Positions 21,472 to 41,076 of a stretch of 64,000 bases of DNA are shown here, piece by piece. This stretch comes from Acidimicrobiales bacterium (GTDB lineage: Bacteria > Actinomycetota > Acidimicrobiia > Acidimicrobiales > SZUA-35): contig CBDCGK010000004.1 in assembly GCA_965216675.1 (NCBI GenBank), positions 4,482,398-4,546,397 of the forward strand, given 5' to 3'. Within the stretch, counting starts at the first letter, position 1. Each line of letters begins with the position of its first letter. A program made the translations under genes and the position numbers. The notes under the pieces are model-generated. The model was not told where the DNA came from, did no database searches, and saw only the letters and a list, made by a program, of their open reading frames with translations.

Positions 21472-23024
<1,553 letters not shown>

Positions 23025-24194: not shown

Positions 24195-24222
24195 AGCGTA
24201 GCGGAACTGAACATTTTGTTAA
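24195..24222 (-). promoter_or_regulatory. ssnA promoter with shared operator TTAACAAAATGTTCA
   Basis: Minus strand reads TTAACA-16nt-TACGCT, 8 nt before the ATG. Motif shared with the xdh and ygfK-like upstream regions. Confidence 0.7.
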
Positions 24223-24347
24223 AGGTGCTCGCTGTCGGCCGTCGCCGCTACCGTCGTCCCAGGAACGCCGGCCGTTCTGCTCGGGGTCGAGGCCTCCATA
24301 CCAGTGCTCCTTTCGGGAGCCCAATGTGGAGGTGTAATCTTGTGTCC

Positions 24348-24983
24348 ATGCCTGCAGTGGTTTTCGACCACGACGCCCATCCCCCCGGTTTGCCGGACGA
24401 TCTGAAGATGCCCGAGCGCGCCGTGCATCGACGAGCGGTCGACGTCATCGGCCTGGCCTCCACCAGGCTCCTCGGACCATCGATCCGTGTGTTTCGGGAC
24501 ATGAACTGGTACCCGGCCGACGGCGGAAACGCCACCGCCCCCGACATCATGTTCCTTCCCGCCGAGGCGGTGGAGGCGTCGCCGCGCTCCTATCGCCAGG
24601 CCGACGGCCCACCACCTCTCGTGGTGGTGGAGATACCGTCCGATGACGACGGATTCGCCGCCTTTCGGGCCAAGGCGAAAAGGGCACAGGCCAATGGGTC
24701 GGTCGTCTACATCGCCGTTGTCGACGGCCCGGACCGGGTGGTCCTTCGCCTCGGGCTCGACGACACGGAGTTCGTGGCCTGGACCGGTCGACCGATCAGC
24801 GAACTCGGAGGTCTGCGGATCGACTACGACGACGGTGAACTCACCGTCGTGCTCCCCGACGGTCTCCGGGCCCGCAGTGACGCCGACCTGGTTTCGGCGG
24901 CAGAGACGAAAGCCGCCGAGATGAGCGCGAAGGCCGACGAGATGGCCCGCCTGCTTCGCGAGCACGGTATCGATCCCGGCTGA
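24348..24983 (+). CDS. Uma2/DUF820-family PD-(D/E)XK endonuclease-like protein
   Basis: MPE..H, DMNWYP..APDIMF, PLVVVEIPS, C-terminal coiled coil LREHGIDP. TAATCT lies 7 nt before the ATG. Confidence 0.75.
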   Translation: MPAVVFDHDAHPPGLPDDLKMPERAVHRRAVDVIGLASTRLLGPSIRVFRDMNWYPADGGNATAPDIMFLPAEAVEASPRSYRQADGPPPLVVVEIPSDDDGFAAFRAKAKRAQANGSVVYIAVVDGPDRVVLRLGLDDTEFVAWTGRPISELGGLRIDYDDGELTVVLPDGLRARSDADLVSAAETKAAEMSAKADEMARLLREHGIDPG

Positions 24984-25019
24984 CAGCCGTGTGATCGTGC
25001 CTGAGCCGGTCTGAACCGG

Positions 25020-27683
25020 TCAGGTGGTCGACACCGTCCAGGCCTCGACTCGCTCGCGGTTCTTCTCGTTGGCCATCGGCAGCTCGTTGTGCCATGTTCC
25101 GGTGGCTTGATGCAGCGCAGCGGCAACGGCGCCGGCCGTGGGAACCAGGCCGATCTCGCCGACTCCCTTGATGCCGTAGGGCGAGTTCGGCTCCGGCGAC
25201 TCGACGAGGATGACGGTGACCGGTGGCATGTCCTTGGGGCGGATGATGGCCAGGCTTCGGAGGGTGTCGTTGGTGGGCCGTCCGTCGACGTCGCACGGGA
25301 ACCCCTCGGTCAAGGCGTAGCCGAGCCCCATGTGGACGGCGCCCTCGACCTGTCCCTCACACAGCAGCGGGTTGACGGCTCGTCCCACATCGTGGGCGGC
25401 CACGACGTGTTCCACCTCACCCGTCTCCGGATCGGCGATCACAACTTGGGCGGCGTACCCGAAGGTGGAGTGGATGATCGGGTTCTCGACACCCTCGGAC
25501 AGCGAGTTGGTCCAGTCGACCCGGTACTCGCCCTCGTAGTCGACCCCCACCCGGCAGCCGTCGGCCATCGCCTTGCGGCAGGCGTCGGCGACCGACCCGG
25601 CGCCCATCAGTGTTCCCCGACTGCCGGTGGTCTGTCCGGCGCCGAGCTCCCGGGTTGAATCGACGATCACGTCGATCCGGTCTGCCTCGACGCCCAGTTC
25701 CTCGACCGCCACCTGGAGAGCGACGGTGTGCACGCCCTGGCCCATTTCGGTCCAGCAGTGGCGCACCTCGACCCGCGGCTCGGACCCATCCGCTCCCGCA
25801 TTCCGCGGATCGACGAAGCGGACGACGGCCCGAGCGATCTCCTTGAAACCGTTCCCGAGCCCCGAGTTCTTGAGCCCGAGACCGAGGCCGACGGCCTTCC
25901 CCGCAGCGACCGCGTCGTCGTAGTACGGCTTGACGGCATCGAGGCATGCCTGGGCCCCGAGGCAGCCGTCGTCCATGATCTGGCCCGGACCCCATTTCAC
26001 GCCGGGGCTGATCACATTGCGGTTTCGCATCTCCCAGCCGCTGATGCCGACCTTCTCGGCCAGGCGGTCCATGACCCCCTCCATGGCGAATTGGGCCTGG
26101 TTGGCTCCGAAGCCCCGAAAGGCGCCGCACACCGAGTTGTTGGAGCGGGCGGCGATGGCGTCGACGTCGATGTTGGGCACCACATAGGGGCCCGAGGCGT
26201 GTCCGGCGGCCCGTTCCAGGACCTTCATGCCGACCGAGGCGTAGGGTCCGGAGTCACCGATCATCCGAATGTGGAGACCGGTCAGTTTGCCGTCGGCGTC
26301 ACAGCCGGCCCGGTATTCCATTCGGATCGGATGTCGTTTGGGGTGGATCAGCAGCGACTCCTCGCGGGTCAGCGTGGTGCGCACCGGTCGCCGCAGCAGC
26401 CACGCGGCGAGCGCGGTCTGGCCCTGGTTGGACATGTCCTCCTTGCCGCCGAACGCCCCACCGTTGGAGACCAGCTCGGTCACGACGATCTCGGGATCGA
26501 CGTCGAGGATGCGGGCGATGTCGTTGCGGTCGTCCCAGATGCCCTGACCGCCGGTGAAAACCATCAGCCGGTCGAAGTCGACGGCTTCGCCCGGTCGGGT
26601 CGTCAGCGGGAGTGGCGTTCCGGCGGGAACCGGCATGGCCAGCGTGGACTCGGGCTCGAGGAAGGCGTGTTCGATGCGTTGCGTCTGGAACGTCTCGATC
26701 ACCGTGTGGGCCGATGCCGCCAGCGCGGCCTCGGCGTCGCCCCGCCGGTAGGTGGAACGGGAGAGAACGTTGCCGTCGAGCTGCCACACCGCATCGTCGT
26801 CGGATTCGACGTTGACGACGGGGTTGGTCATCGGCGGCAACACGTCGTAGGACACGGCGATCTCGGCCGCGGCCCGTCGGGCCGTGAACGGATCGGCGGC
26901 CACCACCAGAGCGAGCACATCGCCGAGGTACGAGGTGCGCCCACCGACCGGAATGAAGACCGGCCAGTCCTTGTGGATGAGACCGGTGCGGAGTTCGCCC
27001 GGCACGTCGGCCGCGGTGAAGACCCGCTCCACGCCGTCCATGGCCTCGGCGGCCGAGGTGTCGATCGACAAGACGTCGGCCCGGGCGTGATCGGCCAACC
27101 TCACCGCACCGTGGAGGAGGCCGTCCGGCGTCATGTCGTCGATGTAGGGACGGGAGCCGAGGGTGAGCGGCTCGGCCTCGTACTTGACGCCTCGGGATCC
27201 GACACCCTTCGGGCTGAGCGCAACCGGGACCTCGCCGGTGGCCAGGTCCTCGATCGCGTCGAGAATCTTGATGTAGCCGGTGCAGCGACAGAGGTTGCCC
27301 CCGAGCAGCCGGGCCGCGTCATCGCGCTGCAGCTCGGCCCCCTTCTTGTCGATCATGGCCTTGGTGCGCATGACGATACCGGGGGTACAGAAGCCGCACT
27401 GGAGCGCACCGTGGGCGGCGAAGGTCTTGGCCATGGCCTCGGCCTCGGAGGCGTCGAGGCCTTCGACGGTGAGCACCTCGGCCCCGTCGACCTTCGCCAT
27501 CGGCGTTTGGCAGGCGACCCGAGCCTTTCCATCGACGATCACGGTGCAGCAGCCGCATTGACCGGAGGGGGCACAGCCGTCCTTGGGGGAGATCACGCCC
27601 AACTCCAGGCGCAGTGCGGCGAGAAGGTGCTCGTGGTCGTTGGAGGCCGATACCGGCCTTCCGTTGAGAATGAAGTCGGTCAT
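25020..27683 (-). CDS. Xanthine dehydrogenase-family molybdenum hydroxylase with fused 2x[2Fe-2S] domain, selenium-dependent XDH/XdhD-like
   Basis: KDGCAPSGQCGCCTV, QCGFCTPG, NLCRCTGY, IEHAFLEPE, GGAFGGKED, HPKRHP, AFRGFGANQ, EMGQG, TTGSRGT, KGVGEIG. Confidence 0.88.
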   Translation of the reverse strand: MTDFILNGRPVSASNDHEHLLAALRLELGVISPKDGCAPSGQCGCCTVIVDGKARVACQTPMAKVDGAEVLTVEGLDASEAEAMAKTFAAHGALQCGFCTPGIVMRTKAMIDKKGAELQRDDAARLLGGNLCRCTGYIKILDAIEDLATGEVPVALSPKGVGSRGVKYEAEPLTLGSRPYIDDMTPDGLLHGAVRLADHARADVLSIDTSAAEAMDGVERVFTAADVPGELRTGLIHKDWPVFIPVGGRTSYLGDVLALVVAADPFTARRAAAEIAVSYDVLPPMTNPVVNVESDDDAVWQLDGNVLSRSTYRRGDAEAALAASAHTVIETFQTQRIEHAFLEPESTLAMPVPAGTPLPLTTRPGEAVDFDRLMVFTGGQGIWDDRNDIARILDVDPEIVVTELVSNGGAFGGKEDMSNQGQTALAAWLLRRPVRTTLTREESLLIHPKRHPIRMEYRAGCDADGKLTGLHIRMIGDSGPYASVGMKVLERAAGHASGPYVVPNIDVDAIAARSNNSVCGAFRGFGANQAQFAMEGVMDRLAEKVGISGWEMRNRNVISPGVKWGPGQIMDDGCLGAQACLDAVKPYYDDAVAAGKAVGLGLGLKNSGLGNGFKEIARAVVRFVDPRNAGADGSEPRVEVRHCWTEMGQGVHTVALQVAVEELGVEADRIDVIVDSTRELGAGQTTGSRGTLMGAGSVADACRKAMADGCRVGVDYEGEYRVDWTNSLSEGVENPIIHSTFGYAAQVVIADPETGEVEHVVAAHDVGRAVNPLLCEGQVEGAVHMGLGYALTEGFPCDVDGRPTNDTLRSLAIIRPKDMPPVTVILVESPEPNSPYGIKGVGEIGLVPTAGAVAAALHQATGTWHNELPMANEKNRERVEAWTVSTT

Positions 27684-27752
27684 GCGGGCGCGCCTCGCTT
27701 GCTTTCGAGCGGTGGTGAATCCGGATTGTGTCGACGGTGGCTGGCCGAGCCC

Positions 27753-27781
27753 AAGATAGTAGCGGTTTAACAATTTGTAAA
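27753..27781 (-). promoter_or_regulatory. xdh promoter with shared operator TTTACAAATTGTTAA
   Basis: Minus strand reads TTTACA-17nt-TATCTT. Imperfect palindrome TTnACA-N3-TGTnAA. Confidence 0.72.
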
Positions 27782-27875
27782 GCTCGTGTGGACGAGCCTG
27801 GGAGCCTCGGACGACCGGCCCACGCGATCGTTGGGGCCGGATCGTCGCGGTATGCCGACGGCTGACCTAGCATGA

Positions 27876-30134
27876 GTGCCTGTGTTGTGGTGGCTCCTCC
27901 TCTCCCATGTGGTTGGCGTGGCCATTTCCGCGTTGGCCGGTTGGCGTTGGGGCATCCGCCAAGGGCTGACTGCGGCGGCCGCCGCCCCGCTGGCCACCAC
28001 GATCTGGGCGGCGACCCGCCTCGTCTCGGGAGCCGGGTCGGAGACCACGGAGATCACCTGGGTGGACGGATTGGACCTCGCCCTCCGGTTCCGTACCGAC
28101 GCCCTCGCCATGCTCATGACCCTGCTCGTGTCCGGCATCGGTGTGCTCGTCTTCGCCTACGCCACCGCCTATTTCGCCCCCGACGCCGCAGGCCGTGCCC
28201 GCTTTCCGGCCACGCTTCTGGCGTTCTCGATGTCGATGCTCGGGCTCGTGTTGGCCGATTCGGTCTGGACCCTGTTCGTGTTCTGGGAGTTGACGTCCAT
28301 TACCTCGTTCCTGCTCGTCGGCCACAAGAGCACCAGCCCCACGGTGCTCGATGCCGCCCGCAGGGCTCTGATGATCACCGCCGGTGGCGGTCTCGTGCTC
28401 ATGGTCGGGTTGCTGGTCCTGGTCGACGTGGCCGGCACGTCGACCCTCAGTGCCCTCGAGCCGGTTGAGGGATCGGCCGCATCGCTGGCCGCCGCCCTCA
28501 TCATGGTCGGAGCCGCCACCAAGTCGGCGCAGATCCCGTTCCACATCTGGCTCCCGGGTGCCATGGCGGCACCGACACCGGTCTCCGCCTACCTCCACTC
28601 GGCCACAATGGTCAAGGCCGGGGTTTTTCTGGTGGCCGTTCTCGGGCCGGTGCTCGCTGACAACGGGGTGTGGATGATCTCAGGCCTTGTGTTCGGCATC
28701 TCGTCGATGTTGTGGGGTGCCATCGGCGCCCTACGCCATGACGACGCCAAGTTGATCCTGGCCTGGGGCACGGTCTCCCAGCTGGGCCTGTTGATCACCC
28801 TGCTGTCGCTCGGCACGGCCAAGGGCGTCTTCGCCGCCATCTCGCTGCTCTTCGCCCATGCCCTGTTCAAGGCTGCGCTGTTCATCGTGGTCGGCGAGAT
28901 CGACGTGCGGACCGGTACGCGCAGCATCACCGAACTCGGCGGACTGGCATCGAAGATGCCGCTCGCCGCCGTCGTGGCCGTTGCCGCCGGAGCGTCGATG
29001 GCGGGCGTGCCGCCGTTACTCGGGTTCGCGGCCAAGGAGGCGGCCGTCGAGGCGGCGCTCGAACTCGACGGACCGCTGTTCGCCGTCGCCGGTCTGTCCA
29101 TCCTGGTTGGCGCGGTGCTCACCGTGGCCTACACCACCAGGTTGTTGCTCGGGCTCTTCGGTTCGGGGCCCGATGTGGCAGTGGCACCGGGTCGCACACT
29201 GCTGGCGGCGCCGTCGGTCGTGCTCGCCGCCGCCGGTCTCGCCGGGTTCGTGTTCATCGGCCCGGTCAACGCCATGGTCGGGCCGGCGGCGATCGAAGTC
29301 GATCCTGAAGCGGCCGTCTACACCCTGTATCGATGGCCGGGTCTGACGCTCGGTCTCACGGTGTCGGCGATCGTGGTCGCGGTTGGACTCGTCGTGGGCC
29401 GGGCTGTGTACGCACTCGATCCCGCAGTCCCGAGGGCGATCGGCGCGGCGGCAACCGACCGGTTGTTGAACGGGATTCCATCGACATGCCGGATGGTCAT
29501 CGGTCGCATTCAGCACGGCTCGCTGCCGATCTATCTCGCAACCATGGCCGGCGTGGCGTCCTTGGCGGTGCTGCCCATGGCGCTGCACTATTCGGCCGAC
29601 CACATCGTGTTGTGGAACGACCCCCTGCAGGCGGTGCTGGCCGCCGTCATCCTGGCCGCATCCGTGGCCGGCGGTTTCGTCGGCTCCCGTCTCGGCGCCG
29701 CGCTCACGCTGGGCGCTGTCGGCATCTGCGTCTCGGGGGTCTATGTCCTGCATGGCGCCCCGGATCTGGCGCTGACCCAGTTACTGGTGGAAACGGTGAT
29801 CGTCGTCGGGTTCGTACTCGGCCTCGGTCATCTGGCCCGCCGGTTTCCCGACAGCCCCGACGCCTGGCAGGCGGTCCGGATTGTCGTGTCGCTGGCCGTC
29901 GGTATCGGCGTCTCGGCCGGCTTGGCCGTCGCAGCCGCCCAGCCCGTCGGAAGCCCGCCGGTCGAGGACCTGGTTCGCCTCGCCGCTGACGAGGGTGGGG
30001 GTGCCAATGTGGTCAACGTGATCCTGACCGACATCCGAGCCCTGGACACGCTCGGCGAGATCACGGTGCTCGTTGTCGTGGCTCTCGGCCTCGGGGCACT
30101 GGCCAATGTCCGGCGATCCGAGGCTAGACCATGA
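27876..30134 (+). CDS. mrpA: Mrp Na+/H+ antiporter subunit A
   Basis: FWELTSITSFLL, TKSAQIPFHIWLPGAMAAPTPVSAYLHSATMVKAG, HALFKA, APDLALTQ, DIRALDTLGE. Start 27876 or 27882. Confidence 0.93.
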   Translation: MPVLWWLLLSHVVGVAISALAGWRWGIRQGLTAAAAAPLATTIWAATRLVSGAGSETTEITWVDGLDLALRFRTDALAMLMTLLVSGIGVLVFAYATAYFAPDAAGRARFPATLLAFSMSMLGLVLADSVWTLFVFWELTSITSFLLVGHKSTSPTVLDAARRALMITAGGGLVLMVGLLVLVDVAGTSTLSALEPVEGSAASLAAALIMVGAATKSAQIPFHIWLPGAMAAPTPVSAYLHSATMVKAGVFLVAVLGPVLADNGVWMISGLVFGISSMLWGAIGALRHDDAKLILAWGTVSQLGLLITLLSLGTAKGVFAAISLLFAHALFKAALFIVVGEIDVRTGTRSITELGGLASKMPLAAVVAVAAGASMAGVPPLLGFAAKEAAVEAALELDGPLFAVAGLSILVGAVLTVAYTTRLLLGLFGSGPDVAVAPGRTLLAAPSVVLAAAGLAGFVFIGPVNAMVGPAAIEVDPEAAVYTLYRWPGLTLGLTVSAIVVAVGLVVGRAVYALDPAVPRAIGAAATDRLLNGIPSTCRMVIGRIQHGSLPIYLATMAGVASLAVLPMALHYSADHIVLWNDPLQAVLAAVILAASVAGGFVGSRLGAALTLGAVGICVSGVYVLHGAPDLALTQLLVETVIVVGFVLGLGHLARRFPDSPDAWQAVRIVVSLAVGIGVSAGLAVAAAQPVGSPPVEDLVRLAADEGGGANVVNVILTDIRALDTLGEITVLVVVALGLGALANVRRSEARP

Positions 30135-30574
30135 TCGCCCGTCGTTCGCCCATGATGGAAGGTGGTGTGCGGCTCATCACGCCTGCTGCCCTGGCGGTTG
30201 GCATCTATCTTCTGTTTGCCGGCCACAACAACCCCGGCGGTGGATTCGCCGCCGGTCTCGTGTTCGGTGCCGTCGTGATCCTCCGAAACCTGGCCGACAT
30301 CCAAGAACCGCGACATGGACGTGAGTTCGTGGCACTGGGCCTGCTCGGTGCGGCCCTGGTGGCCGCCGCGCCGGTGGTGGGTGGCGGTCTGCTGTTCGAT
30401 CAGGTGGTGGTCGACGTCGAGCTTCCCGTTCTGGGCAAGGTCAAGTCGGGTGGTGCCCTTCCGTTCGACATCGCCGTCAGTGCGATCGTCGTCGGCCTGG
30501 TCATCGCTCTGCTCGACGGCCTCGAGGCGTCACGCGATGACCGCTCCCGCCCTCCGATCGAGGATGACGAATGA
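30131..30574 (+). CDS. mrpB: Mrp antiporter subunit B
   Basis: FAGHNNPGGGFAAGL, PFD. Confidence 0.9.
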   Translation: MIARRSPMMEGGVRLITPAALAVGIYLLFAGHNNPGGGFAAGLVFGAVVILRNLADIQEPRHGREFVALGLLGAALVAAAPVVGGGLLFDQVVVDVELPVLGKVKSGGALPFDIAVSAIVVGLVIALLDGLEASRDDRSRPPIEDDE

Positions 30575-30936
30575 GTCTCGCACTGCTCATCGCCATCGGC
30601 GGACTCACCAGTGTGGGTGTCTACCTGATCACCACCCGGTCCCTCAGCCGGATCATTCTCGGCTTTTCCCTGCTCGGTCACGCCACCGTTCTGGCCCTTC
30701 TCGTCGCCGGTGGCCGACCGGGAGCGTCCCCGATCGGAAACGGAGCCGAGGTCTCGAATCCCCTGCCCCAGGCGTTGGGTCTGACGGCCATCGTCATCTC
30801 CTTCGGACTGGCACTCTTCCTGCTCGCCCTGGCCGTTCGTCAGCAGACCCTGACCGGTGACGACCTGGTCGAGGACGACCTCGAGGACCGCCGGGTCGGT
30901 AGCCGTGAAGCGATACAGGAGCGGCCGACGGCGTGA
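30571..30936 (+). CDS. mrpC: Mrp antiporter subunit C
   Basis: NPLPQALGLTAIVISFG. Confidence 0.92.
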   Translation: MSLALLIAIGGLTSVGVYLITTRSLSRIILGFSLLGHATVLALLVAGGRPGASPIGNGAEVSNPLPQALGLTAIVISFGLALFLLALAVRQQTLTGDDLVEDDLEDRRVGSREAIQERPTA

Positions 30937-32414
30937 ACGTTCTCGTGACGCTGATCATTCTTGCTCCTCTGGCCGCCGCAACCATCGGGCTGCTGGTGCG
31001 GGCTCACGCCGGCATCCGGGAGACGGTCGTCGGTCTCGGCCTGGGCACGGCCGCCGTTTCGTCGATTGCCCTCCTGGTGGCGGTGATCCGGGACGGAACG
31101 GTGACGGTCCGGGTCGGAGGCTGGCACCCCGAGCTCGGTGTCGTGCTCGTCGCCGACCTGTTCTCGGCCCTTGTCCTGCCGTGGGCGCTGACCATCATCT
31201 TCGTGGTCGAACTGTACGCCATCGGCCAGCGCAGGACGGCGTGGGGCGCCAATCCGGAACTGTCGGGACCGCTGCTGGCCGTCCTGACCACCGGCCTCGC
31301 GCTCGCGTTCCTCACCGGCGACCTCTTCACGCTGTTCGTCTCGTTCGAGGTCATCCTCGTGTCGAGCTACGTCCTGATCACCCATCAGGGGAGGCCGGGG
31401 CAGATTCGATCGGGCATGACGTATGTCGCCATGAACCTCTTCGTGTCGGCCCTGTTCCTGTTCGGTGTGGCGTTCGTCTACGCCGCCACCGGTACCGTCA
31501 ACCTCGCCCTCCTCGGTGAGCGGCTTCCCGACCTGCCCGATGCCGTGCGACTCGGAATCGGAACCTGGTTCCTCGTCGTGTTCGGGACCAAGGCTGCGGT
31601 CTTCCCGCTGTTCTCGTGGCTGCCCGACGCGTATCCGACGGCCCCCACCAGCATCACGGCGGTTTTCGCCGGTCTGCTGACCAAGGTCGGGATCTATGCG
31701 TTGATCCGCTTCCACACCGTCACCTCCATGAGCGACCTCGGACCGCTGTTCCTCGCGGTTGCCGGTGTCACGATGGTGATCGGGGCCATGGGTGCGCTGG
31801 CACAATCGAACGTGAAGAGGATCCTGTCGTTCCACATCATCAGCCAGGTCGGATACATGGTGATGGGATTGGGACTCTTCTCGGTGGCCGGCGTCGGCGG
31901 TGCCATCTTCTTTCTGCTGCACCACATGCCGGTGAAAACCGTGCTCTTCCTCGTCGGTGGACTCATCGAGAACGAGCAGGGCTCGGGTTCGCTCGACGAG
32001 TCGGGAGGACTGGCACGTCGGGCCCCGTTGGTGGCGGCGCTGTTCGCTGTCCCGGCGCTGAGCCTGGCCGGCATACCACCGTTCTCCGGTTTCGTGGCCA
32101 AGCTGGCGGTCGTGTCCGCCGCCGTCGATCAGGCCGCCACCGCCGTCGTGGTCGCAGCGGTGGCCGCCGGGTTCCTCACCGTGTTGTCGATGAACAAGAT
32201 CTGGATGGGTGCGTTCTGGGGTGAGCGCCCGGACGACGCCGAGCCGGTCACGACCGCAACGGGTAACCGACTGCTGATGCAGGGGTCGACGGCGATCGCC
32301 GTGGTCGCCACCATCATCATCGCCGCGTTGGCCGGATCGTTGCTCGATCTCAGTGTGCGCGCCGCCACCGACCTGCTCGAACCGGCGTCCTACATCGCAG
32401 AGGTGTTGTCGTGA
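30933..32414 (+). CDS. mrpD: Mrp antiporter subunit D
   Basis: TGDLFTLFVSFEV, KAAVFPLFSWLPDAY, LLTKVGIYA, LAGIPPFSGFVAK. Confidence 0.93.
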   Translation: MNVLVTLIILAPLAAATIGLLVRAHAGIRETVVGLGLGTAAVSSIALLVAVIRDGTVTVRVGGWHPELGVVLVADLFSALVLPWALTIIFVVELYAIGQRRTAWGANPELSGPLLAVLTTGLALAFLTGDLFTLFVSFEVILVSSYVLITHQGRPGQIRSGMTYVAMNLFVSALFLFGVAFVYAATGTVNLALLGERLPDLPDAVRLGIGTWFLVVFGTKAAVFPLFSWLPDAYPTAPTSITAVFAGLLTKVGIYALIRFHTVTSMSDLGPLFLAVAGVTMVIGAMGALAQSNVKRILSFHIISQVGYMVMGLGLFSVAGVGGAIFFLLHHMPVKTVLFLVGGLIENEQGSGSLDESGGLARRAPLVAALFAVPALSLAGIPPFSGFVAKLAVVSAAVDQAATAVVVAAVAAGFLTVLSMNKIWMGAFWGERPDDAEPVTTATGNRLLMQGSTAIAVVATIIIAALAGSLLDLSVRAATDLLEPASYIAEVLS

Positions 32415-32956: not shown

Positions 32957-33225
32957 TGACCGTGGCCTTCCTGTCGTTCACCTTCGCCGGGTTGTGTGGC
33001 GTCTATCGACTGCTGAAGGGACCGTCCCTGCCCGACCGGATCATGGCCCTGGACCTGATGCTCACGTCGTTGATGGGGGTCATCGTCATCGACGCCGTTC
33101 GCCGTCATGAAACCGGGTACCTGGTGCTCCCGGTCGTGTTGGCCATCATCGCGTTCACCGCCACCGTGGCCGGAGCCTGGTTCGTCGAGGCTCAGGCCGA
33201 CTCCGAAACGGACGTGCATTCATGA
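32953..33225 (+). CDS. mrpF: Mrp antiporter subunit F
   Basis: RLLKGPSLPDRIMALD. Confidence 0.9.
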   Translation: MMTVAFLSFTFAGLCGVYRLLKGPSLPDRIMALDLMLTSLMGVIVIDAVRRHETGYLVLPVVLAIIAFTATVAGAWFVEAQADSETDVHS

Positions 33226-33271
33226 CGTCGTCGTGCCGGAGGCCCGGGCCGGTGGTGTGGGCTGGGAGGTT

Positions 33272-33610
33272 GTGGCCTTGACCGTCGTCGCCCACCTTCT
33301 CATAGCGCTCGGCGGCGTTTTGGCCGCCATCGCCGGCATCGGTGTCGTTCGGCTGTCCACCCCCTACGCGCGAATTCACGCGGCCGGTGTGGCGAGTCCG
33401 GTCGCCTTCGTCGTCGCCGGTGTGGGAGCCGCCATCGAACTCGACGTCATCGGCGCCGGCTATGTCCTCATCGCCGCCGTGGCCATGCTCGTGACACTAC
33501 CCATCGGCGTCCACCTGCTGTTTCGGGCGGTCTACCGAACCGCCGACAACGTCCATCTTCACCGCGATGATCTGACCGGCAGGGAAGAACACGATTCCGG
33601 CGGCGGCTGA
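33272..33610 (+). CDS. mrpG: Mrp antiporter subunit G
   Basis: IGVVRLSTPYARIHAAG, TLPIGVH. GGAGG precedes GTG 33272. Confidence 0.85.
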   Translation: MALTVVAHLLIALGGVLAAIAGIGVVRLSTPYARIHAAGVASPVAFVVAGVGAAIELDVIGAGYVLIAAVAMLVTLPIGVHLLFRAVYRTADNVHLHRDDLTGREEHDSGGG

Positions 33611-33734
33611 GGGACCGTTCCTCACCGAGCGGATACGGCCGCCGGTCACCTTCCATCGGAATCCGTCGACCGCACTAGACTCGGCCCCATCGGCGGAGGA
33701 ACCCAGCCCCGCTCACGCCACTACGGGAGGTTTC

Positions 33735-34964
33735 ATGACCGACGTCCGGTCTGCACTCGAGCTAAGCGCCACCGACTACGACATAGCGGACCGTGATCAT
33801 CACCGTCGGGTCCGATCGATCGCCGACATGCTCCTGGCCGGCGGTGCCACCGACGACGAACTGGTACGGCTCGGCAACGACGTCGACCGGCCCCTCGATC
33901 TGCGGGTCGCCACCCGAGTCGCTGCGTCGAGACGTCGCATCACCGAAGGGATCCCGGCGTTGACGGTGGCGGTCGTGATCGCCATGTGGGGTGAGCAGCG
34001 CCGGCTGCGGCCGCCGAGTGAGGACAACCCGACCGGTGAGGATTCCCTTCATGTGAAACTCGACCAGTTGGAGTGGCTGCTCCACGACTCTCCGGTGAAT
34101 TGGCGGCTCTACATGGTCGACGACGGCGACCCTGATGATTCAGCCGCCGTGGCCGTCGAACGGGCGGCGCTCCACGAGGCCGGCGATCGAGTCACCGTGC
34201 TGCGGCTCGGTGACGTCGTGCCCGCCGAAACCGGGCCCCTCGCCGGCCTGACGTCGGTGGACGACTCACGCAAGGGCGGTGCCATTGTGTACGGAGCGGC
34301 GACGGCGATGACCGACGGTGCCGATGCGGTGATCATGACCGACGCCGACAACTCCGTCGACCTGACCCAGATCGGTCTGCTCCTGGCGGCCTTTGTCGAC
34401 GGTGCCGATGTGGTGATCGGCGACCGAAAGAGCCCCGAATCGGTCCTCGTCAAGGCCGAGGCCCGTTGGGGCCCTGGCATCGTGGCGCTCCGGCACATGC
34501 AGCGCATGGTGGGACGGCAACTGTTCGAACGCGGCCTGCGCGACACTCAGGCGGCATTCAAGCTTTATGGCCGCCGGGCGCTGGAGCCGATCCTGGCCGC
34601 CCCCTCCACCTACGGATTCTCGTTCGACTCCGACTGGCTCTATGCGACGATCGCCTCCGGTGGTGTGATCACGTCGGTCCCGTTCGCGTTCATTGATTCG
34701 TTCGCCGAGTCGGCGTCGATAGCACAGGGCCCGATGACCACCTGGGAGTCCCTGCTGCGTGGCCTGGTGGCCGCGGCCCGGGCTCGAAACGTCGATCACC
34801 ATGTCGAGATGGCGGCTGTCGTGGATGAGCTGGCCGACGCCGCCACTCTCGAACGGGTGGTGGCCAATGTCCCCCCGGAACTGGACGACATCGACCCGTC
34901 CCGACTCGGTGACCCGGCTGTCATGTCGGCGGCGAGGATGCGGTCGTGGATCGAGTCGTTGTAG
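33735..34964 (+). CDS. Glycosyltransferase family 2 (Dol-P-Man/Glc synthase-like) with N-terminal extension
   Basis: VDDGDPD, SRKGGAI, TDADNS (DxD), DVVIGDR, DTQAAFK, FSFDSD. Confidence 0.75.
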   Translation: MTDVRSALELSATDYDIADRDHHRRVRSIADMLLAGGATDDELVRLGNDVDRPLDLRVATRVAASRRRITEGIPALTVAVVIAMWGEQRRLRPPSEDNPTGEDSLHVKLDQLEWLLHDSPVNWRLYMVDDGDPDDSAAVAVERAALHEAGDRVTVLRLGDVVPAETGPLAGLTSVDDSRKGGAIVYGAATAMTDGADAVIMTDADNSVDLTQIGLLLAAFVDGADVVIGDRKSPESVLVKAEARWGPGIVALRHMQRMVGRQLFERGLRDTQAAFKLYGRRALEPILAAPSTYGFSFDSDWLYATIASGGVITSVPFAFIDSFAESASIAQGPMTTWESLLRGLVAAARARNVDHHVEMAAVVDELADAATLERVVANVPPELDDIDPSRLGDPAVMSAARMRSWIESL

Positions 34965-35015
34965 AACGAAGTTCGGTTTCGGGAACAAACAACCGGTGCT
35001 CTACGTTGGTAGGTC

Positions 35016-35327
35016 ATGCAGGTTGAACTGACCGAAGACGCCATCGAACTCGTTCGACGCAAGGGTGGCACCGTCGCCGTCGACTGGATACCCAAATACG
35101 GTTGAAGCGGTGTTGACCAGGTGGCGGTCGACACCTACTTGAAGGGCAAGAACACCTCGTCGTACCGGAAGGTGCGTCGCGATGACGTCGAGGTGCTGGT
35201 TGCGCCGACGATCGTGAGACTGGCCGAAGAGGTGCACCTCGTGGCCCGCAAACGGTTGATCGGTCTCAAGCTGATGGCGGTCATCTATCGGGATCCGAGC
35301 ACCTGCTCCATCGAGCCGCCACGCTGA
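35016..35327 (+). CDS. Candidate small selenoprotein (HesB/IscA-like fold) with in-frame TGA at 35103-35105
   Basis: Read-through gives MQVELTEDAIELVRRKGGTVAVDWIPKYG-U-SGVDQVAVDTYLKGKNTSSYRKVRRDDVEVLVAP..CSIEPPR (103 aa). TACGTT -10 lies 8 nt before the ATG. A hairpin follows the TGA. Confidence 0.65.
35109..35135 (+). other. Candidate bacterial SECIS hairpin
   Basis: GGTGTTGACC-AGGTGGC-GGTCGACACC: 10-bp stem with one G-U pair and G at loop position 2, starting 3 nt after the TGA. Confidence 0.5.
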
Positions 35328-35366
35328 GGGGACCTCGCTCGACAGCCGTTCGGCGCGGCACCTGAA

Positions 35367-36083
35367 TCAGGACGATGTAGGGAAGGCAACGTCGTCGAGA
35401 AACCAATCGACGAGGTCTCGACAAGCCGCCCGGCTCTGTGGCTCTCGTCGACGTGTCTCCGCGGCCAAGCTGTCGGTGTCGATGTCGTAGCGGGCCAGAT
35501 ACGCGGGGTCGGAGGCCGACAGCCAACCGTCGAGCATGGCCACCGTGATCTCGGGGTGAAACTGGGTGCCGACGGCGTTCCCGAGCCGGAACAGCTGCTG
35601 TCCGGCATCCGACGCGGCCAGAACCTCGGCCCTCTCGGGAGCGTGGAACCGGTCATGATGCCACTGCATCCACGGTCCGGTACTGACCGGCATCGTGGAC
35701 GGATCGGTCGGCTCGATCCGGTGCCAGCCGATCTCGGTGATCGGGGACGGCTCAACCGAGCCGCCGAGAACGTCGGCCAGCAGTTGACCGCCAAAGCAGA
35801 CGCCCAGCATCGGCTGTCCCCGTCGGTGGGCCGCCGCCAAGGCCTCCAGTTCATCGTGGATCCAGGACTCGACTTCGTGCTTTCGAGTCAGCGAACGCAC
35901 CGATCCCGTCAGAACCACCAGGTCATAGGAGGCGAGATCGGGAAGCGGTCCGGTTGCCTCGTTGGGCCGATCGAGATCCAGGGTGATGACGTGTTCGGTG
36001 AGATCGAAGCCTCGGGTCACGAGATGGCTGCCGATCTCGCCGGTCGGACCGTCGGGTTCGTGCACCAGCGAAACCGCCTTCAT
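35367..36083 (-). CDS. Class I glutamine amidotransferase-like hydrolase
   Basis: LGVCFGGQLLA, EIGW, QWHHD, QFHPE catalytic triad. Confidence 0.88.
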   Translation of the reverse strand: MKAVSLVHEPDGPTGEIGSHLVTRGFDLTEHVITLDLDRPNEATGPLPDLASYDLVVLTGSVRSLTRKHEVESWIHDELEALAAAHRRGQPMLGVCFGGQLLADVLGGSVEPSPITEIGWHRIEPTDPSTMPVSTGPWMQWHHDRFHAPERAEVLAASDAGQQLFRLGNAVGTQFHPEITVAMLDGWLSASDPAYLARYDIDTDSLAAETRRREPQSRAACRDLVDWFLDDVAFPTSS

Positions 36084-36327
36084 CTGGACACCACCCGTAC
36101 AACTGGCTCTGGCACTGGTACTCGCACGTCCATCTTCCTCGCTCGAATCGACTGGAGAATTGTAGGGTCGCGTCGCCTTTCTGTATCAAACCGTCGTTCC
36201 CGACCTCACGACTACCGGACCGACGTCGTAGAATGGAGCGAGGTACCGGTGACCGGCGCCGACCAAGATGACAAGACGGAGGGCGACAGCCGACCTGAGC
36301 GCAGGTCGGGCCTAAGCGTAGGAGTCC

Positions 36328-37017
36328 ATGTCTCGAGAACACGACGGCAGATCCCGTAGGAGACCCAAGGAGCAGACGCGTCGCGACATCCTCGACACCG
36401 CCCTCCAGATGATGATCGACGACGGGGCAACCGAACAGATCGACCTTCGGCTTTCCAGCGTCCTCGACCATATGGGTCTCACGTCCGGCGCCGCCTACAA
36501 CATCTGGGCCTCGCAGGGCGACTTTCAACATGACCTTGCTCACCATCTGCTTCGCGAATACTCATGGGCCGGTCCCGACCGGAACGAGATCAAGGTCGAC
36601 TTCGATGCCGACCCCACCGACGAGATACGCCGTCTGGCCGAGCTGTACCTCATCTCACTGACCGACGACACCCAGTTCTATTTGACGCTCCGGTTCTGGG
36701 GGGTCAAACACCCCTCGGCGGCTCTGCTCGCCTCCGTCAAGCACGGCTATGCCTCCAACCACGACCTGTGGCGATTCTTCTATCACGTCGGCTTCGAGTG
36801 GGCCGGTTTCCGCATGCGCGACGGCTATACGCTCGACGACTTCGTGACCATGGCCACCATGATCACCGAGGGCGCCGCACTTCGCCACCGGTTCGAACCC
36901 GAGCGGCTCTTCGGCTCAGGCGGCAACAACCTCTACAGCGAGGCTCTGGTGGCGCTCGTAACGTACTTCACCGAAAGTGTCGACGCCGGGCGGAGCCGGA
37001 TCAAGCCGCCGGATTGA
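36328..37017 (+). CDS. TetR-like transcriptional regulator
   Basis: TRRDILDTAL..VLDHMGLTSGAAYNIW helix-turn-helix. Confidence 0.7.
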   Translation: MSREHDGRSRRRPKEQTRRDILDTALQMMIDDGATEQIDLRLSSVLDHMGLTSGAAYNIWASQGDFQHDLAHHLLREYSWAGPDRNEIKVDFDADPTDEIRRLAELYLISLTDDTQFYLTLRFWGVKHPSAALLASVKHGYASNHDLWRFFYHVGFEWAGFRMRDGYTLDDFVTMATMITEGAALRHRFEPERLFGSGGNNLYSEALVALVTYFTESVDAGRSRIKPPD

Positions 37018-37822
37018 GCTCCCACCGATGTCGGCGTCGAGTGATGTCGAACACGGGGGCGAACGTCGGGGACCGTTCGAGATCGGCCGGCAGGACGAGT
37101 CCGGCGTGGTCACGTTCGACCGAGAGGTCCAGTCGCGCCAACAGCGTCGTGGCCACTCCGTGCACCGCGAACAGCGCAGCCCGCGGCAACGGGGACGGCC
37201 AGACACCGCTCACCGCCTGACGTTTCTCCAGTTCGACCTCGAGAAGGCGCGGCTGAAGCCCCCGGCTGTGGGCGATGATGTCGGCCAGCACCGGGGTCGC
37301 GAGTTCGATCGACAATCCGGCGGCATCGTAGAGTCTCACAACCAACTCGGCGCAATGCATCCGGGTAGGACCGTCCGCGATCAGCCGGAACTGCTGACGG
37401 ACGATCCAGTCCTTCGCCGCGGGGGGCAGAACGGCGACGAACCTGGTGATGGCGCAACCGAAACCCAACAGGATGGCCCCGACCGACGGGTAGGTCGGTG
37501 AGTGCTCGATCAGATAGTCGGCGATACGGCCGAGCCGTTCGGTATCGAGCGACGCCGGTCGGACAACCCTGATGTCGCTGAGCGTGGCGGTCTTTGTGCG
37601 AAAGTCCCGAAACGTGACGGTGAAGACACCCTCGTCGTTCTCCGGAGGGGTGAGCGAGATGTCGGTGGCCTGGATGAGACGACGGTCGCCGAGCACGATC
37701 ATCGCATGACCGAATCGACTACCAGTGGCCCATTGGGTCACCTCCGAGAAGAAGTTCGGACCACCCGACAAGACGAGGTCACCGGGCTGTAAAAGGTCGA
37801 GATACGTTCCTGGCATCGGCAT
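37001..37822 (-). CDS. Permuted papain-like (NlpC/P60, YaeF/YiiX-type) amidase
   Basis: LQPGDLVL..SRFGHAMIV (His first), later MHCAELVVRLYDAAG (Cys) and LPADL. Confidence 0.72.
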   Translation of the reverse strand: MPMPGTYLDLLQPGDLVLSGGPNFFSEVTQWATGSRFGHAMIVLGDRRLIQATDISLTPPENDEGVFTVTFRDFRTKTATLSDIRVVRPASLDTERLGRIADYLIEHSPTYPSVGAILLGFGCAITRFVAVLPPAAKDWIVRQQFRLIADGPTRMHCAELVVRLYDAAGLSIELATPVLADIIAHSRGLQPRLLEVELEKRQAVSGVWPSPLPRAALFAVHGVATTLLARLDLSVERDHAGLVLPADLERSPTFAPVFDITRRRHRWELNPAA

Positions 37823-38125
37823 CGGAGTGGTCGGTCTCCTTTCTGGCGGTTGGCGTAAAGGCCTGTACGGGCTCGACGGAATACGACGATCGTCGGTCGT
37901 CGGAACGGGGTCGAGGTGGTGTCCTTCATTGGACCCACGCTGGTAGGGGCGCGAACAGCCGAGTCTGTAGCGATTCAGCGCTTCCGGTGTGCCGGTTCTC
38001 GGCGTGTCAACGAACCGGGGTGGTTCGGTTTACTCCGACGGAGCCGCTGGGCTACATGTGGGCGATAGATCGCGTTGAAGAAGCGACAAGCAGGAGTATG
38101 GAACGGCTACTTTGCCGGGCCCTCA

Positions 38126-38173
38126 TGCCGCAAACGAAATATAGAAAATATATTTCCAAATCGTTTGACGGCA
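38126..38173. other. Extended AT-rich inverted repeat (terminator or operator)
   Basis: TGCCG-CAAACG..CGTTTG-A-CGGCA enclosing GAAATATA-GAAAA-TATATTTC, about 20 nt past the carbamoylase stop. Confidence 0.55.
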
Positions 38174-38194
38174 GTCAAGCGATTTTCAGCCGAT

Positions 38195-39130
38195 TCATGA
38201 CGGCTCGATAACGCCCTTCTGCGAGGCGATGCGGCCATACATCTCCGGGCGGCGATACCTCGAGAAGTCAAAGAGTGTTTCCTTGTAGCGCCGGCACCAG
38301 TCGAGGTCACAGTCGGCGACGACGAGCTCGTCGCCGGTGGTCACCGCTTGGGCCACTATCTGGCCGGACGGAGCGATGATCGCCGACTGGGCCAACGACT
38401 CGACGCCCTCCTCGGTGCCGCCCTTGGCCACTCCGACGACCCAGGTGCCGTTCTGGTATGCGCCGGCCTGCATGCACAGGTGATTGTGGAACGCCTGGAG
38501 CGGGTTCTGTCCCGGATCCGGAGCGTAGTGAATCGGGGTGTTGTAACCGATCATGATGAGTTCGACCCCTTGAAGACCCATCTCACGGTAGGTCTCGGGC
38601 CAACGGCGGTCATTGCAGATGGCCATCCCGACGAGGCCGTCAAAAGCCCGCCACACCGAGAAGCCCTCCGTTGACTCCTCGAAGTACCGGCGTTCCAGAT
38701 GCTGGAACGGTCGCCACGGTTCGTCGTCCTCGTGGCCCGGGATGTGAACCTTGCGGTAGCGTCCGACCTCGGTGCCGTCGCCGTCGACCAGAATCGCCGT
38801 GTTGTAGCGGTGTCCATCGTCGGTGAGTTCGGCGAAGCCGAGGTGGACACCGATCCCGTAGGCCCGAGCCGCGTCGAACAGAGGTTGGGTTTCCGGACCG
38901 GGCATTCGGCGCTCGAAGTAGTGGTCGTGGCCGTCGAGATCCTCGGTGTACCACCGGGGAAAGAACGTTGTGAGGGCCAGCTCCGGGTAGACGATCAGGT
39001 CGGCGCCGTGATCGGCACCCTGATCGAGCAGGGCCAGTAGTCGTCGCACGACATCGGCCCGGGATTCGTCGCGGCCGATCGGTCCCAGCTGGGCCGCCGC
39101 CACTCGAAGTACTCGCCTGGTCAACACCAC
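38195..39130 (-). CDS. N-carbamoyl-amino acid hydrolase (nitrilase superfamily, DCase-like)
   Basis: YPELALTTFFPRW (Glu), YRKVHIPGH (Lys), ICNDRRWPE (Cys), QHLERRYF. Confidence 0.88.
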   Translation of the reverse strand: MVLTRRVLRVAAAQLGPIGRDESRADVVRRLLALLDQGADHGADLIVYPELALTTFFPRWYTEDLDGHDHYFERRMPGPETQPLFDAARAYGIGVHLGFAELTDDGHRYNTAILVDGDGTEVGRYRKVHIPGHEDDEPWRPFQHLERRYFEESTEGFSVWRAFDGLVGMAICNDRRWPETYREMGLQGVELIMIGYNTPIHYAPDPGQNPLQAFHNHLCMQAGAYQNGTWVVGVAKGGTEEGVESLAQSAIIAPSGQIVAQAVTTGDELVVADCDLDWCRRYKETLFDFSRYRRPEMYGRIASQKGVIEPS

Positions 39131-39223
39131 CTCCCATTCCGCTCGATCATCGACGATCTCGGCTCACTTCGTGTCTCTCGATGCACGTCCGGCTCTCCGC
39201 TGCTTGGTGATTCACATCGGCCG

Positions 39224-41041
39224 TCAGCGGTTCAGTGGTAGGGGGCTGCCCTTCTCCGACCGCAACAGGCCGGCCACGATGGCCGTGGCCTCAGCCGACG
39301 ATTCGTCTTCGGTGCGGCCCAACACCGTCCCATCGGGGCGGAGCAGAAAGCCCTGACCGGTGCGGGCCGAGAACACCGACTCGTCGGTGAACAACCTGGG
39401 TTTGACCATCGCCGGGTCGCCGTCTTCGGGGCAGAACGTCATGCAGTTGCCGCATTCGTTGCACAGTTCCGACCACACCAGGTATTGCTGACGCCCGTCC
39501 TGGCCCTCCAGGCTGGGAATCGAGAAGAAGGCGTCGTTGGGGCAGACCGTGATGCAGAAGTTGCAGGCAACGCAGCCGAACATCTGCAGATCGGTGTCGA
39601 CCTCGCGGGGCAGCTTGGCGTTGCCCTGGCGCGTGTAGGGCTCGATACCGTCGCCCCGAATGGCGGCGACGTGTTGGTTGACGGTGGCCCGGTGGCCGGC
39701 CGCGGTCGCCTGACCTTGTCGGAGGGTCCGCCAGTCGGCCAGGTTCTTCGCCCCGGATTCGGCAACCGCTGCGGTGAGTGCCTTGAGCATCGGTGCCAAG
39801 CGACCGTAACCGCCGGGCTTCAGAAGGTCCGAACAGATCGTTGCCGGGTTCACCCCCATGGCGAGGGTGTCCGCCAGGTTGTCCTTGCTGACCCCGGCCG
39901 AGAAGCTGACCATCACGTCGCCGTCGTGGCCGGGGATGTCCAGTGCGCCGGGAAGTGCCTCGGCCAGCCGCTCGAGCAGGCTGGACGCGAGGACGTGAAG
40001 CGGGGCGCCGGAGAGGTACATCGTGTCCTCGGGCATCCACTGCTTGATGTTCTCGACGACGAGGGTGTTGGTGAGCTTGATGCCGAACCGGTGACCGCGT
40101 TCGGCGGCGTAGTCGTTTAGCTCGCCGATCAGCTCGATGCCCCGCTCGAACTGGAGATCCTCGGCGAAAGCGGACTCTTTGACCACCACGTCGTCGTAGC
40201 CCAGCTCGTCGTTGATGATGCCCCGGACGGTCTCGTAGCCGAGCAGCGTCGGGTTGAGCTTGACGATCACGTCGAGATCGTGCACGTCGACCAGGTGCTT
40301 CGTGATCTGTTCGATCTCCTCCGGCGGGCATCCGTGGAAGGTGGAGAGGGTGAGTGTGTCGGAGAGTGAGGTGGTGAAGTCGAGGTCCCGAAAGGAGGCG
40401 AACGCTTCGGGAATCTCGGAGCGGAGACGCTCGACCTCGGCGGAGGCGTCGCGCATACCGGTGATGAACTCGGCGACGCGGGGGTTGGAGATGCCGGCCA
40501 GGTCATAGCCGACGGACATGTCGAACACGTGAGGTCCGGGCCCGCCGTCGGGTCCGGCGACGTGTTGGAGCACCGGATCCCAGCGGGACAGGATGTCGAG
40601 CAGCATCGACGCCTTGACGTATTCGGTGAGGCTCTGGCCGAGCGTCAGCTCCTGGCTCCACTCGATGTTGTAACCGATCGTCTGCATGTCGATACAGGGT
40701 CTGGCGATCTCCAGCTCGTCCAGAATCTGAACGGTCTTCAGCTCGAACAGCCGAGATCCGCCCAGCCAGGCCAGAACGATGTTCTGGGCCAGCTGGGAGT
40801 GGGGGCCGGCGGCCGGGCCGATCGGTGAGGCCGCCCGACGGCCGACGAATTCGAAGCCCAGATCGATCTCGGTGTCGGGTCGCCAGAAGCGCCCGGTGGG
40901 CAGGTCGAAGATGCGGTTTCGGGTGTCGAACTCGTGGGCCACCCGGCCGAGGAGGAGGCCAAGGTCCATCGGGGTGAGCGGTGCCGTTTCGCCGACGTGG
41001 TCGTGACCTGGGTGGTTGGTGTTGAGGGCGCGCTGGGTCAC
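39224..41041 (-). CDS. Short YgfK-like oxidoreductase (FMN barrel plus C-terminal 2x[4Fe-4S])
   Basis: PIGPAAGPHSQLAQNI, ELKTVQILD, RPCIDM..YNIEWSQEL, TLSTFHGCPPEEIE, KLNPTLLG, IKLTNTL, DLLKPGGYGRL, CVACNFCITVCPN, CNECGNCMTFCP. Confidence 0.82.
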   Translation of the reverse strand: MTQRALNTNHPGHDHVGETAPLTPMDLGLLLGRVAHEFDTRNRIFDLPTGRFWRPDTEIDLGFEFVGRRAASPIGPAAGPHSQLAQNIVLAWLGGSRLFELKTVQILDELEIARPCIDMQTIGYNIEWSQELTLGQSLTEYVKASMLLDILSRWDPVLQHVAGPDGGPGPHVFDMSVGYDLAGISNPRVAEFITGMRDASAEVERLRSEIPEAFASFRDLDFTTSLSDTLTLSTFHGCPPEEIEQITKHLVDVHDLDVIVKLNPTLLGYETVRGIINDELGYDDVVVKESAFAEDLQFERGIELIGELNDYAAERGHRFGIKLTNTLVVENIKQWMPEDTMYLSGAPLHVLASSLLERLAEALPGALDIPGHDGDVMVSFSAGVSKDNLADTLAMGVNPATICSDLLKPGGYGRLAPMLKALTAAVAESGAKNLADWRTLRQGQATAAGHRATVNQHVAAIRGDGIEPYTRQGNAKLPREVDTDLQMFGCVACNFCITVCPNDAFFSIPSLEGQDGRQQYLVWSELCNECGNCMTFCPEDGDPAMVKPRLFTDESVFSARTGQGFLLRPDGTVLGRTEDESSAEATAIVAGLLRSEKGSPLPLNR

Positions 41042-41047
41042 GACGCA

Positions 41048-41076
41048 AACGTAGCGGGGTTTTAACATTTTGTAAA
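41048..41076 (-). promoter_or_regulatory. ygfK-like promoter with shared operator TTTACAAAATGTTAA
   Basis: Minus strand reads TTTACA-17nt-TACGTT, 6 nt before GTG 41041. Confidence 0.75.

Follow-up and report, generated by a model that had tools for sequence, protein, structure and literature searches.

A single 15 bp palindrome recurs at three promoters within a 64,000-nucleotide (nt) stretch of DNA from an Acidimicrobiales bacterium (lineage SZUA-35; GenBank assembly GCA_965216675.1, contig CBDCGK010000004.1, i.e., C4:4482398-4546397; hereafter the window), and the genes behind these promoters are an ssnA-like, an xdhD-like and a ygfK/uacX-like gene. The palindrome is a real, specific and conserved regulatory site. 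Judging from sequence comparisons, we consider it likely that the palindrome serves as the operator of a reductive-urate (2,8-dioxopurine-type) regulon in the Acidimicrobiia, and that a 138 amino acid (aa) protein with an HTH_22 domain acts upon it as a dimeric, ligand-relieved repressor. Four units would be controlled in this way in the source genome: the ssnA-like gene with two genes for pyridoxal phosphate (PLP)-dependent enzymes; the xdhD-like gene; the ygfK/uacX-like gene with a gene for a carbon-nitrogen (CN) hydrolase; and the operon of a Bmp-type ATP-binding cassette (ABC) transporter. An earlier reading of this DNA from its letters alone (the sequence-only reading) had proposed that one operator links three dispersed promoters of one pathway under a common regulator, and this proposal is supported by the specificity of the site, by its conservation, and by the consecutive pathway steps assigned to the three genes.

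Operator sites and promoter geometry

The operators and the -10 boxes of the three promoters within the window are as follows.

24208-24222, minus strand: operator 1, TTAACAAAATGTTCA, with the -35 box of the ssnA-like promoter as its left arm
24195-24200, minus strand: -10 box TACGCT of the ssnA-like promoter (-35 box TTAACA, 16-nt spacer; read directly from the sequence)
27767-27781, minus strand: operator 2, TTTACAAATTGTTAA, with the -35 box of the xdhD-like promoter as its left arm
27753-27758, minus strand: -10 box TATCTT of the xdhD-like promoter (-35 box TTTACA, 17-nt spacer; from the promoter scan, 9/12 matches)
41062-41076, minus strand: operator 3, TTTACAAAATGTTAA, with the -35 box of the ygfK/uacX-like promoter as its left arm
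41048-41053, minus strand: -10 box TACGTT of the ygfK-like promoter (-35 box TTTACA, 17-nt spacer; read directly from the sequence)

All three 15-mers named by the sequence-only reading were found at exactly these places on the minus strand, and in the source genome they conform to the palindrome TTWACA-N3-TGTWAA. The pattern TTWACAAAWTGTTMA occurred at 3 exact places in the 64-kb window, compared to a mean of 0.02 in 100 shuffles, in line with the earlier statement that an origin by chance is unlikely; at up to 2 mismatches the window gave 4 rows, one of them being the opposite-strand reading of 27767-27781. The same tolerance applied to the whole source genome (G000; 5.65 Mb, 66.7% G+C, 95% complete) gave 7 rows at 5 places, and none for the control (reversed pattern). 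There are thus 4 good operators plus 1 doubtful 2-mismatch place genome-wide, and the possibility raised earlier that the motif is a generic -35/UP element did not hold. The fourth operator, TTGACAAATTGTTAA, is found outside the window, 32 kb to its left (C4:4449933-4449947). A chance match was assumed for the fifth place, C4:2914955, which has 2 mismatches and stands near a porin gene and a sigma-factor gene. A search with a degenerate pattern, counted per strand, returned 15 rows as against 7 for the control; apart from the four operators it added only an element between purQ and purC (described below) and a pair at C4:2896415 and 2896449. The palindromes of this pair, TTTACACTGCGTAAA and TTTACACGGTGTCAA, stand 34 bp apart (C4:2896415-2896463), with an alpha/beta hydrolase gene on one side and EgtB/EgtD-like ergothioneine genes on the other, and are probably the operator of a different regulator. 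The genome searches used consensus patterns with mismatches, and weaker sites may have been missed.

The sequence-only reading had described a left arm serving as the -35 hexamer with a TANNNT box 16-17 nt downstream, and this arrangement was present at all three promoters: the inverted repeat covers the -35 box and the spacer, the -10 box follows 16-17 nt after the -35 box, and the same geometry was seen in relatives. A promoter scan at an E. coli-type threshold recovered the xdhD promoter alone of the three, the ssnA and ygfK promoters falling below the threshold because of their weaker -10 boxes. The further claim that all three sites share CCGCTAC near the -10 box stood for the source genome and failed in relatives, where only CTAC or ACTA, itself part of the -10 box, stays; CCGCTAC is therefore not a conserved element. 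A phylogenetic footprint at xdhD (9 genomes) showed that the operator and the -10 box were kept while the flanks varied.

The ssnA-like and ygfK-like mRNAs are probably leaderless or nearly so, because the ssnA-like ATG lies 8 nt, and the ygfK-like GTG (41041) 6 nt, after the -10 box, because relatives differ downstream of this GTG mainly at third codon positions, as in coding sequence, and because the orthologue in G009 aligns with the ygfK-like protein from residue 1. The xdhD-like gene would have, by position, a 5' untranslated region of about 54 nt. Within this leader (window 27700-27745) a block, GCCACCGTCGAC, was kept in most of 9 aligned genomes and was without an Rfam match; an Rfam search of the window as a whole found no RNA family.

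This geometry suggests how the site may work. An HTH_22 protein bound to the 15 bp palindrome as a dimer would have its left half-site in the -35 hexamer and its right half-site in the spacer, the promoters being otherwise complete and of sigma-A type. With the -35 box and the spacer so covered, the bound protein should block RNA polymerase, i.e., repress; good -35 boxes with 16-17-nt spacers make an activator unnecessary, and a purine-derived ligand would relieve repression. The copies might instead be what a small mobile element left behind, as scars or as its own ends, after insertion at three places, since all three are equally oriented and insertions (Uma2, mrp) stand between the units; but the surroundings of the sites showed neither extended similarity nor any terminal repeat or duplicated target, and the distance from site to gene start is fixed in many genomes, so that we regard this explanation as extremely improbable.

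Conservation of the site and its association with an HTH_22 gene

Relatives were sampled as 40 genomes (24 of the same genus and 16 from other families), and sites were located by family scans and tblastn. The site was found within 1 mismatch in 14 of the 24 same-genus genomes, against 3 matches in all for the reversed control. It preceded the xdhD-like gene in 10/10 genomes of clade A, to which the source genome belongs (9 loci plus G007); the ygfK-like gene in 7 of these 10 (the source genome and 6 further) as well as in 9 clade-B genomes; and the ssnA-like gene at 2 loci (source genome and G002). The earlier reading would have been given up if the motif were not conserved upstream of orthologues, and these counts show that it is.

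The candidate regulator is encoded outside the window, to its left, beside the fourth operator.

C4:4449390-4449806: candidate regulator gene, 138 aa, 32 kb left of the window

HTH_22 (PF13309) covers residues 71-132 of this protein (E 3.5e-19, 69 bits versus a cut-off of 29.6). The fourth operator stands 52 nt before the ABC operon (two permeases, a Bmp/PnrA-type binding protein, an ATPase and a pyridine-nucleotide disulphide oxidoreductase) and 126 nt from the start of the divergent HTH_22 gene. The gene's own promoter appears to be leaderless, with CTACCCTACGGGCC followed by ATG (C4:4449807-4449830), and is conserved in 7 genomes. Homologues of the protein are annotated only as helix-turn-helix (HTH) or hypothetical proteins of Acidimicrobiia; NCBIfam has no model for it, a sequence search of solved structures gave no match, and no Pfam match to PAS_6 was obtained at E ≤5. 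When compared to a representative protein library, the protein had 1683 matches at E ≤0.001, 254 at 1e-10 and 24 at 1e-30. The Protein Atlas, entered by way of a homologue, returned only HTH_22 clusters, one with Thiamine_BP in 63% of its members.

Full-length orthologues (58-82% identity) were found in G001-G005, G007, G012, G016 and G019. Together with the source genome these make 10 genomes of the genus with a full-length regulator, and they are exactly the 10 with a site at xdhD. Another 12 genus genomes match the HTH part of the regulator only, and in 9 of these 12 the HTH_22 gene is flanked by the ABC permease gene and by a divergent ygfK-like gene, whose start lies 18-21 nt behind the palindrome. 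Three genomes of the genus (G018, G020 and G023) and one of another family (G040) carry the xdhD cluster without an HTH_22 match; motif counts in these four were at or below the control, and none lay within the cluster stretches examined. Of the 16 genomes from other families, 5 combine xdhD with HTH_22 and 9 lack the two; of the remaining pair, one has xdhD alone and the other no more than a weak HTH_22 match.

Several sites stand in other settings. A single one precedes the HTH_22 gene in G009. In G003 a tandem pair, TGTACAAATTGTTAA, stands before the gene for the flavin adenine dinucleotide (FAD) subunit of another molybdenum hydroxylase, and occurs twice in that genome (L035 C1:3082-3113 and C13:4745761-4745792). 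In G028, from another family of the order, the genes preceded by the palindrome are one for a luciferase-like oxidoreductase and, near xdhD, one for an M20 peptidase of YgeY type; this placement fits the F420-type pathway variant that Li et al. (10.1101/2025.05.19.654654) mention.

A class-wide set was assembled from 80 loci with relatives of the regulator (one genome per species, 798,808 bp; all Acidimicrobiia or Actinomycetota not further named), in which a relaxed palindrome, each arm within 1 mismatch, was counted. There were 82 palindromes in 61/80 loci, versus 4 reversed-control matches; the consensus across the class is approximately TTGACAAAATGTMAA, and the 61 sites give approximately TTGACAAAATGT(A/C/T)AA. 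In the usual layout the ygfK/uacX-like, ssnA and xdhD genes are transcribed away from the regulator gene with the operator before the first gene, and the stretch from the regulator gene to the ABC transporter often carries a further operator. The motif stood no more than 200 nt upstream of the start of xdhD in 26/45 cases, ABC permease 19/33, regulator 11/78, ygfK-like 2/28, ssnA 1/34 and CN hydrolase 0/20, as fits operators at operon heads. In the cultured Ilumatobacter nonamiensis YM16-303, a member of this set, an operon starts with a YgeY-like M20 peptidase gene and continues with CN hydrolase, xdhD and ssnA, and the motif stands 23 nt ahead of that first gene.

The architecture of the HTH_22 proteins varies in front of the DNA-binding part. 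The source-genome clade has a middle module and then HTH_22 (138 aa); the clade-B protein of G009 (164 aa) has a weak Thiamine_BP match followed by HTH_22; and the G028 protein (205 aa) has, in this order, a Thiamine_BP domain, the conserved middle module and HTH_22. Across the family there is almost no variation in the recognition-helix region, which agrees with the conserved half-site. Operator position 3 is G with the helix variant LLRR-SI and T with LLRG-AV, a correspondence that is confounded by relatedness and that we do not count as evidence.

With these distributions, two further explanations can be weighed. In the first, no dedicated factor exists and the 15-mer is a strong promoter module (-35 box plus AT-rich spacer) copied between promoters. 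It is true that the left arm is a -35 hexamer and that a promoter can gain strength from an AT-rich spacer; however, sigma factors need no spacer arm mirroring the -35 box, yet the TGTWAA arm is equally conserved (61 sites). Moreover, the motif is limited to 4-5 places in 5.65 Mb, was not found at orthologous promoters of genomes without the HTH_22 gene, and the flanks around the window operators are dissimilar beyond about 30 bp. We judge this explanation very unlikely.

In the second, the operator is real but bound by another factor, either an unlinked global purine regulator or the product of an open reading frame (ORF) that the sequence-only reading had offered as a candidate.

36328-37017, plus strand: ORF called TetR-like; rejected as regulator

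This divergent ORF is placed between the units of xdhD and ygfK, as are its close orthologues in G002, G007 and G019 (76-83% identity), and there are faint NCBIfam matches to the TetR family (AcrR, CurR; E about 0.03); the link of HTH_22 to the operator is, for its part, one of association only. However, the ORF had no Pfam match at E ≤5 and its AcrR/CurR scores were 14 bits versus cut-offs of 271 and 300. A close orthologue was not found in the motif-bearing G001, G003, G005, G012 and G016, whereas homologues of 35-37% identity are present in the motif-less G018, G020 and G023; none of the 80 class-wide loci, nor the relatives' loci, held a homologue, whereas an HTH_22 gene stands beside operators in 61/80. 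With close orthologues in only three or four genomes and no co-occurrence with the motif, the TetR-like candidate was dropped, and we give binding by any factor other than the HTH_22 protein a small probability.

Pathway genes and the splitting of their operon

The genes under the window operators, and one gene between them, are:

23116-24186, minus strand: ssnA-like amidohydrolase, 356 aa (TIGR03314, Amidohydro_1)
20350-23024, minus strand: a pair of genes for PLP-dependent (PALP) enzymes that follow ssnA-like; start positions uncertain owing to an ORF overlap at 21468-22122
25020-27692, minus strand: xdhD-like molybdenum hydroxylase, 890 aa, with fused 2Fe-2S, hammerhead and molybdenum cofactor (MoCo)-binding domains
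39224-41041, minus strand: ygfK/uacX-like reductase, 605 aa, with an N-terminal YgfK part and a 2x[4Fe-4S] domain
38195-39130, minus strand: CN hydrolase, downstream of ygfK-like
24225-24983, plus strand: Uma2-family gene between xdhD-like and ssnA-like, outside the regulon

According to Li et al. (10.1101/2025.05.19.654654), XdhD converts urate to 2,8-dioxopurine by reduction; the product is dearomatised by YgfK, or by the FAD-less UacX of Clostridia; SsnA opens the ring; and hydrolases with a PLP lyase end the route. The same route is described by Liu et al. (10.1101/2025.04.24.650524). The xdhD-, ygfK- and ssnA-like genes would correspond to the first three consecutive steps of this pathway, urate being the substrate that we infer for them.

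The xdhD-like protein matched TIGR03311 over its full length (positions 2-844; 751.2 bits, cut-off 830.45). The ygfK-like protein matched TIGR03315 at model positions 4-406 of 1012 (434 bits, cut-off 835), with no match to 407-1012, and carries Fer4 domains in addition; this architecture fits UacX as described in 10.1101/2025.05.19.654654. The ssnA-like protein gave 230.7 bits with TIGR03314 (cut-off 455.5), the match being limited to positions 58-341 of 441. Compared with the SsnA model it is shorter by about 58 positions at the N-terminus and by about 95 at the C-terminus; as relatives keep this short form at 80-90% identity, it is not a recent truncation. The two PALP genes probably share a transcription unit with ssnA-like, and the order ssnA-PALP1-PALP2 was also found in G017, G018, G020 and G023. 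The CN hydrolase gene is probably in one unit with ygfK-like, its neighbour in relatives too, and its product may cleave carbamoyl or ureido groups. In the source genome yqeB gave a partial 22.6-bit match only, and yqeC none, so that of the marker proteins of a selenium-dependent molybdenum hydroxylase system the maturation proteins YqeB and YqeC were not found, whereas SelD is present. An in-frame TGA within selD (C4:252126-253094) points to a SelD that contains selenocysteine, and this gene lies beside one for a second SsnA-like amidohydrolase (C4:253278-254486).

The comparison of gene orders suggests how three units arose. In G017 the ygfK, CN hydrolase, xdhD, ssnA, PALP1 and PALP2 genes form one tight operon with a single operator. 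Clade A has two units (ygfK with CN hydrolase; xdhD onward) with two operators, and the source genome and G002 have an additional Uma2 gene between xdhD and ssnA together with a third operator. The Uma2 gene marks the point where the operon was split, since xdhD and ssnA are directly adjacent in G017, G018, G020 and G023. Set against the one-operator operon of G017, the two or three operator-bearing units point to a regulon that was kept while its operon was divided.

Other neighbours in the window were noted. Divergent from ygfK-like (window 41103-42038) is a RimB-like retropepsin-type peptidase gene with a histone H1-like N-terminal region, which is leaderless too, its promoter being TGAACA-17-TAGAAT with the -10 box overlapping the ATG; RimK and an AstE/AspA-like gene follow downstream. 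Window 45595-49786 holds an MttB-family methyltransferase gene and then a DAO/GCV_T fusion resembling dimethylglycine oxidase, unrelated to the regulon.

Reach of the regulator and comparison with known systems

A palindrome with a variant arm (ACT), TTGACTTTTTGTCAA, lies outside the window at C4:4717336-4717350, between purQ and purC-purF. Its core, AC(A/T)TTTTGT, was present in 16/22 genus loci examined and absent from G018 and G023, which are without the transcription factor; this distribution indicates that the regulator may reach beyond catabolism. No clear -35/-10 geometry was seen at the purC element and Rfam gave no match at the purC leader, so that it may be a fifth operator or the site of another factor. 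A site between purL and a 5'-nucleotidase (NT5C) gene was found in G008, G009 and G013, and in G028 the regulator gene adjoins a gene resembling that for inosine monophosphate dehydrogenase (IMPDH) or guanosine monophosphate (GMP) reductase.

The HTH_22 protein might therefore bind the palindrome as an activator or dual regulator of general purine status, including purC-purF and purL. The purC core with its absence from the two factor-less genomes, the purL-NT5C sites and the IMPDH/GMP-reductase-like neighbour all speak for this; yet at the catabolic promoters the site over the -35 box and spacer, the near-consensus -35 boxes and the 16-17-nt spacing are classical repressor geometry, and at purC no -35/-10 geometry could be assigned and the element may belong to another factor. 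On balance we think this unlikely. A related and wider possibility is that the HTH_22 family is the master purine-status regulator of Acidimicrobiia, with one palindrome for Bmp uptake, for reductive urate/purine breakdown and for parts of de novo synthesis (purC-purF, purL/NT5C), and with a sensor module that is swapped (Thiamine_BP/YkoF-like versus the short novel one). From the domain and site comparisons this is conceivable, though doubtful; if true, it would be the first use of the Thiamine_BP/YkoF-like ligand-binding fold in a transcription factor, and would provide a natural urate or 2,8-dioxopurine biosensor.

Repression of a reductive urate regulon by the HTH_22 protein remains the reading that we favour, and the following points weigh against it. 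The purC-purF element and the purL/NT5C sites misfit a purely catabolic repressor. All three pathway proteins score below their NCBIfam cut-offs, so that their substrate is a matter of inference. The source-genome regulator is without the Thiamine_BP-like domain of its relatives, and its own promoter is overlapped by no operator. G021 has a paralogue of the regulator without xdhD. The palindrome was not found near the regulator gene in 5/10 clade-A genomes (G004, G005, G007, G012 and G019), so adjacency is not universal, and 19/80 class-wide loci were without the motif at the threshold used. Finally, presence of the regulator was what selected the 80 loci, and genomes that are related do not count as independent; the factor-less genomes serve as the complementary control.

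It was only in 2025, and in gut anaerobes, that the reductive urate (2,8-dioxopurine) pathway was elucidated, and our literature search, which covered texts other than supplements, found no published regulation of it outside E. coli. The present comparison offers a concrete operator and a candidate regulator for this pathway in a whole class of environmental Actinomycetota. It also predicts, for the first time, what an uncharacterised HTH_22 subfamily (254 representative clusters at E ≤1e-10) may do and which DNA it may target. The cultured I. nonamiensis carries the motif and a relative of the regulator and so offers an organism for testing. The source genome also provides an example of an operon split in three whose co-regulation would be kept through an operator copy per unit, and the predicted regulator-operator pair could act as a sensor for urate-pathway intermediates.

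DauR is a regulator of D-arginine catabolism in Pseudomonas. YheO/DauR-type regulators have in common with the present protein a C-terminal HTH_22 domain (PF13309); they differ in having a YheO-like PAS_6 domain, whereas the present protein has instead a short module (source genome) and its relatives Thiamine_BP (MTH1187/YkoF-like). A literature search on YheO, HTH_22, PF13309 and DauR found no operator or link to purines.

YgeV is a sigma-54 activator. The uricolytic cluster of E. coli and Clostridia, as described in 10.1101/2025.05.19.654654 and 10.1101/2025.04.24.650524, has the enzyme set that is predicted here from similarity (XdhD, YgfK/UacX, SsnA, PLP lyase and ureido-cleaving hydrolases). 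The E. coli cluster is contiguous, with a Crp site between ygeV and ygeW, whereas in the source genome three units are tied by one operator; a further difference is that the source proteins fall below the equivalog cut-offs and that yqeB and yqeC were not found in the source genome. A term search of 10.1101/2025.05.19.654654 and 10.1101/2025.04.24.650524, outside their supplements, gave no regulator for Actinomycetota.

The system proposed here shares the logic of several purine-catabolic regulators, in which a local one-component regulator acts with a palindromic operator at purine-catabolic promoters. These urate- or purine-responsive repressors include HucR/PecS (MarR family), XdhR (TetR family, Streptomyces), PucR (Bacillus) and RutR (TetR family); they differ from the HTH_22 system in belonging to other protein families and in having other operator sequences.

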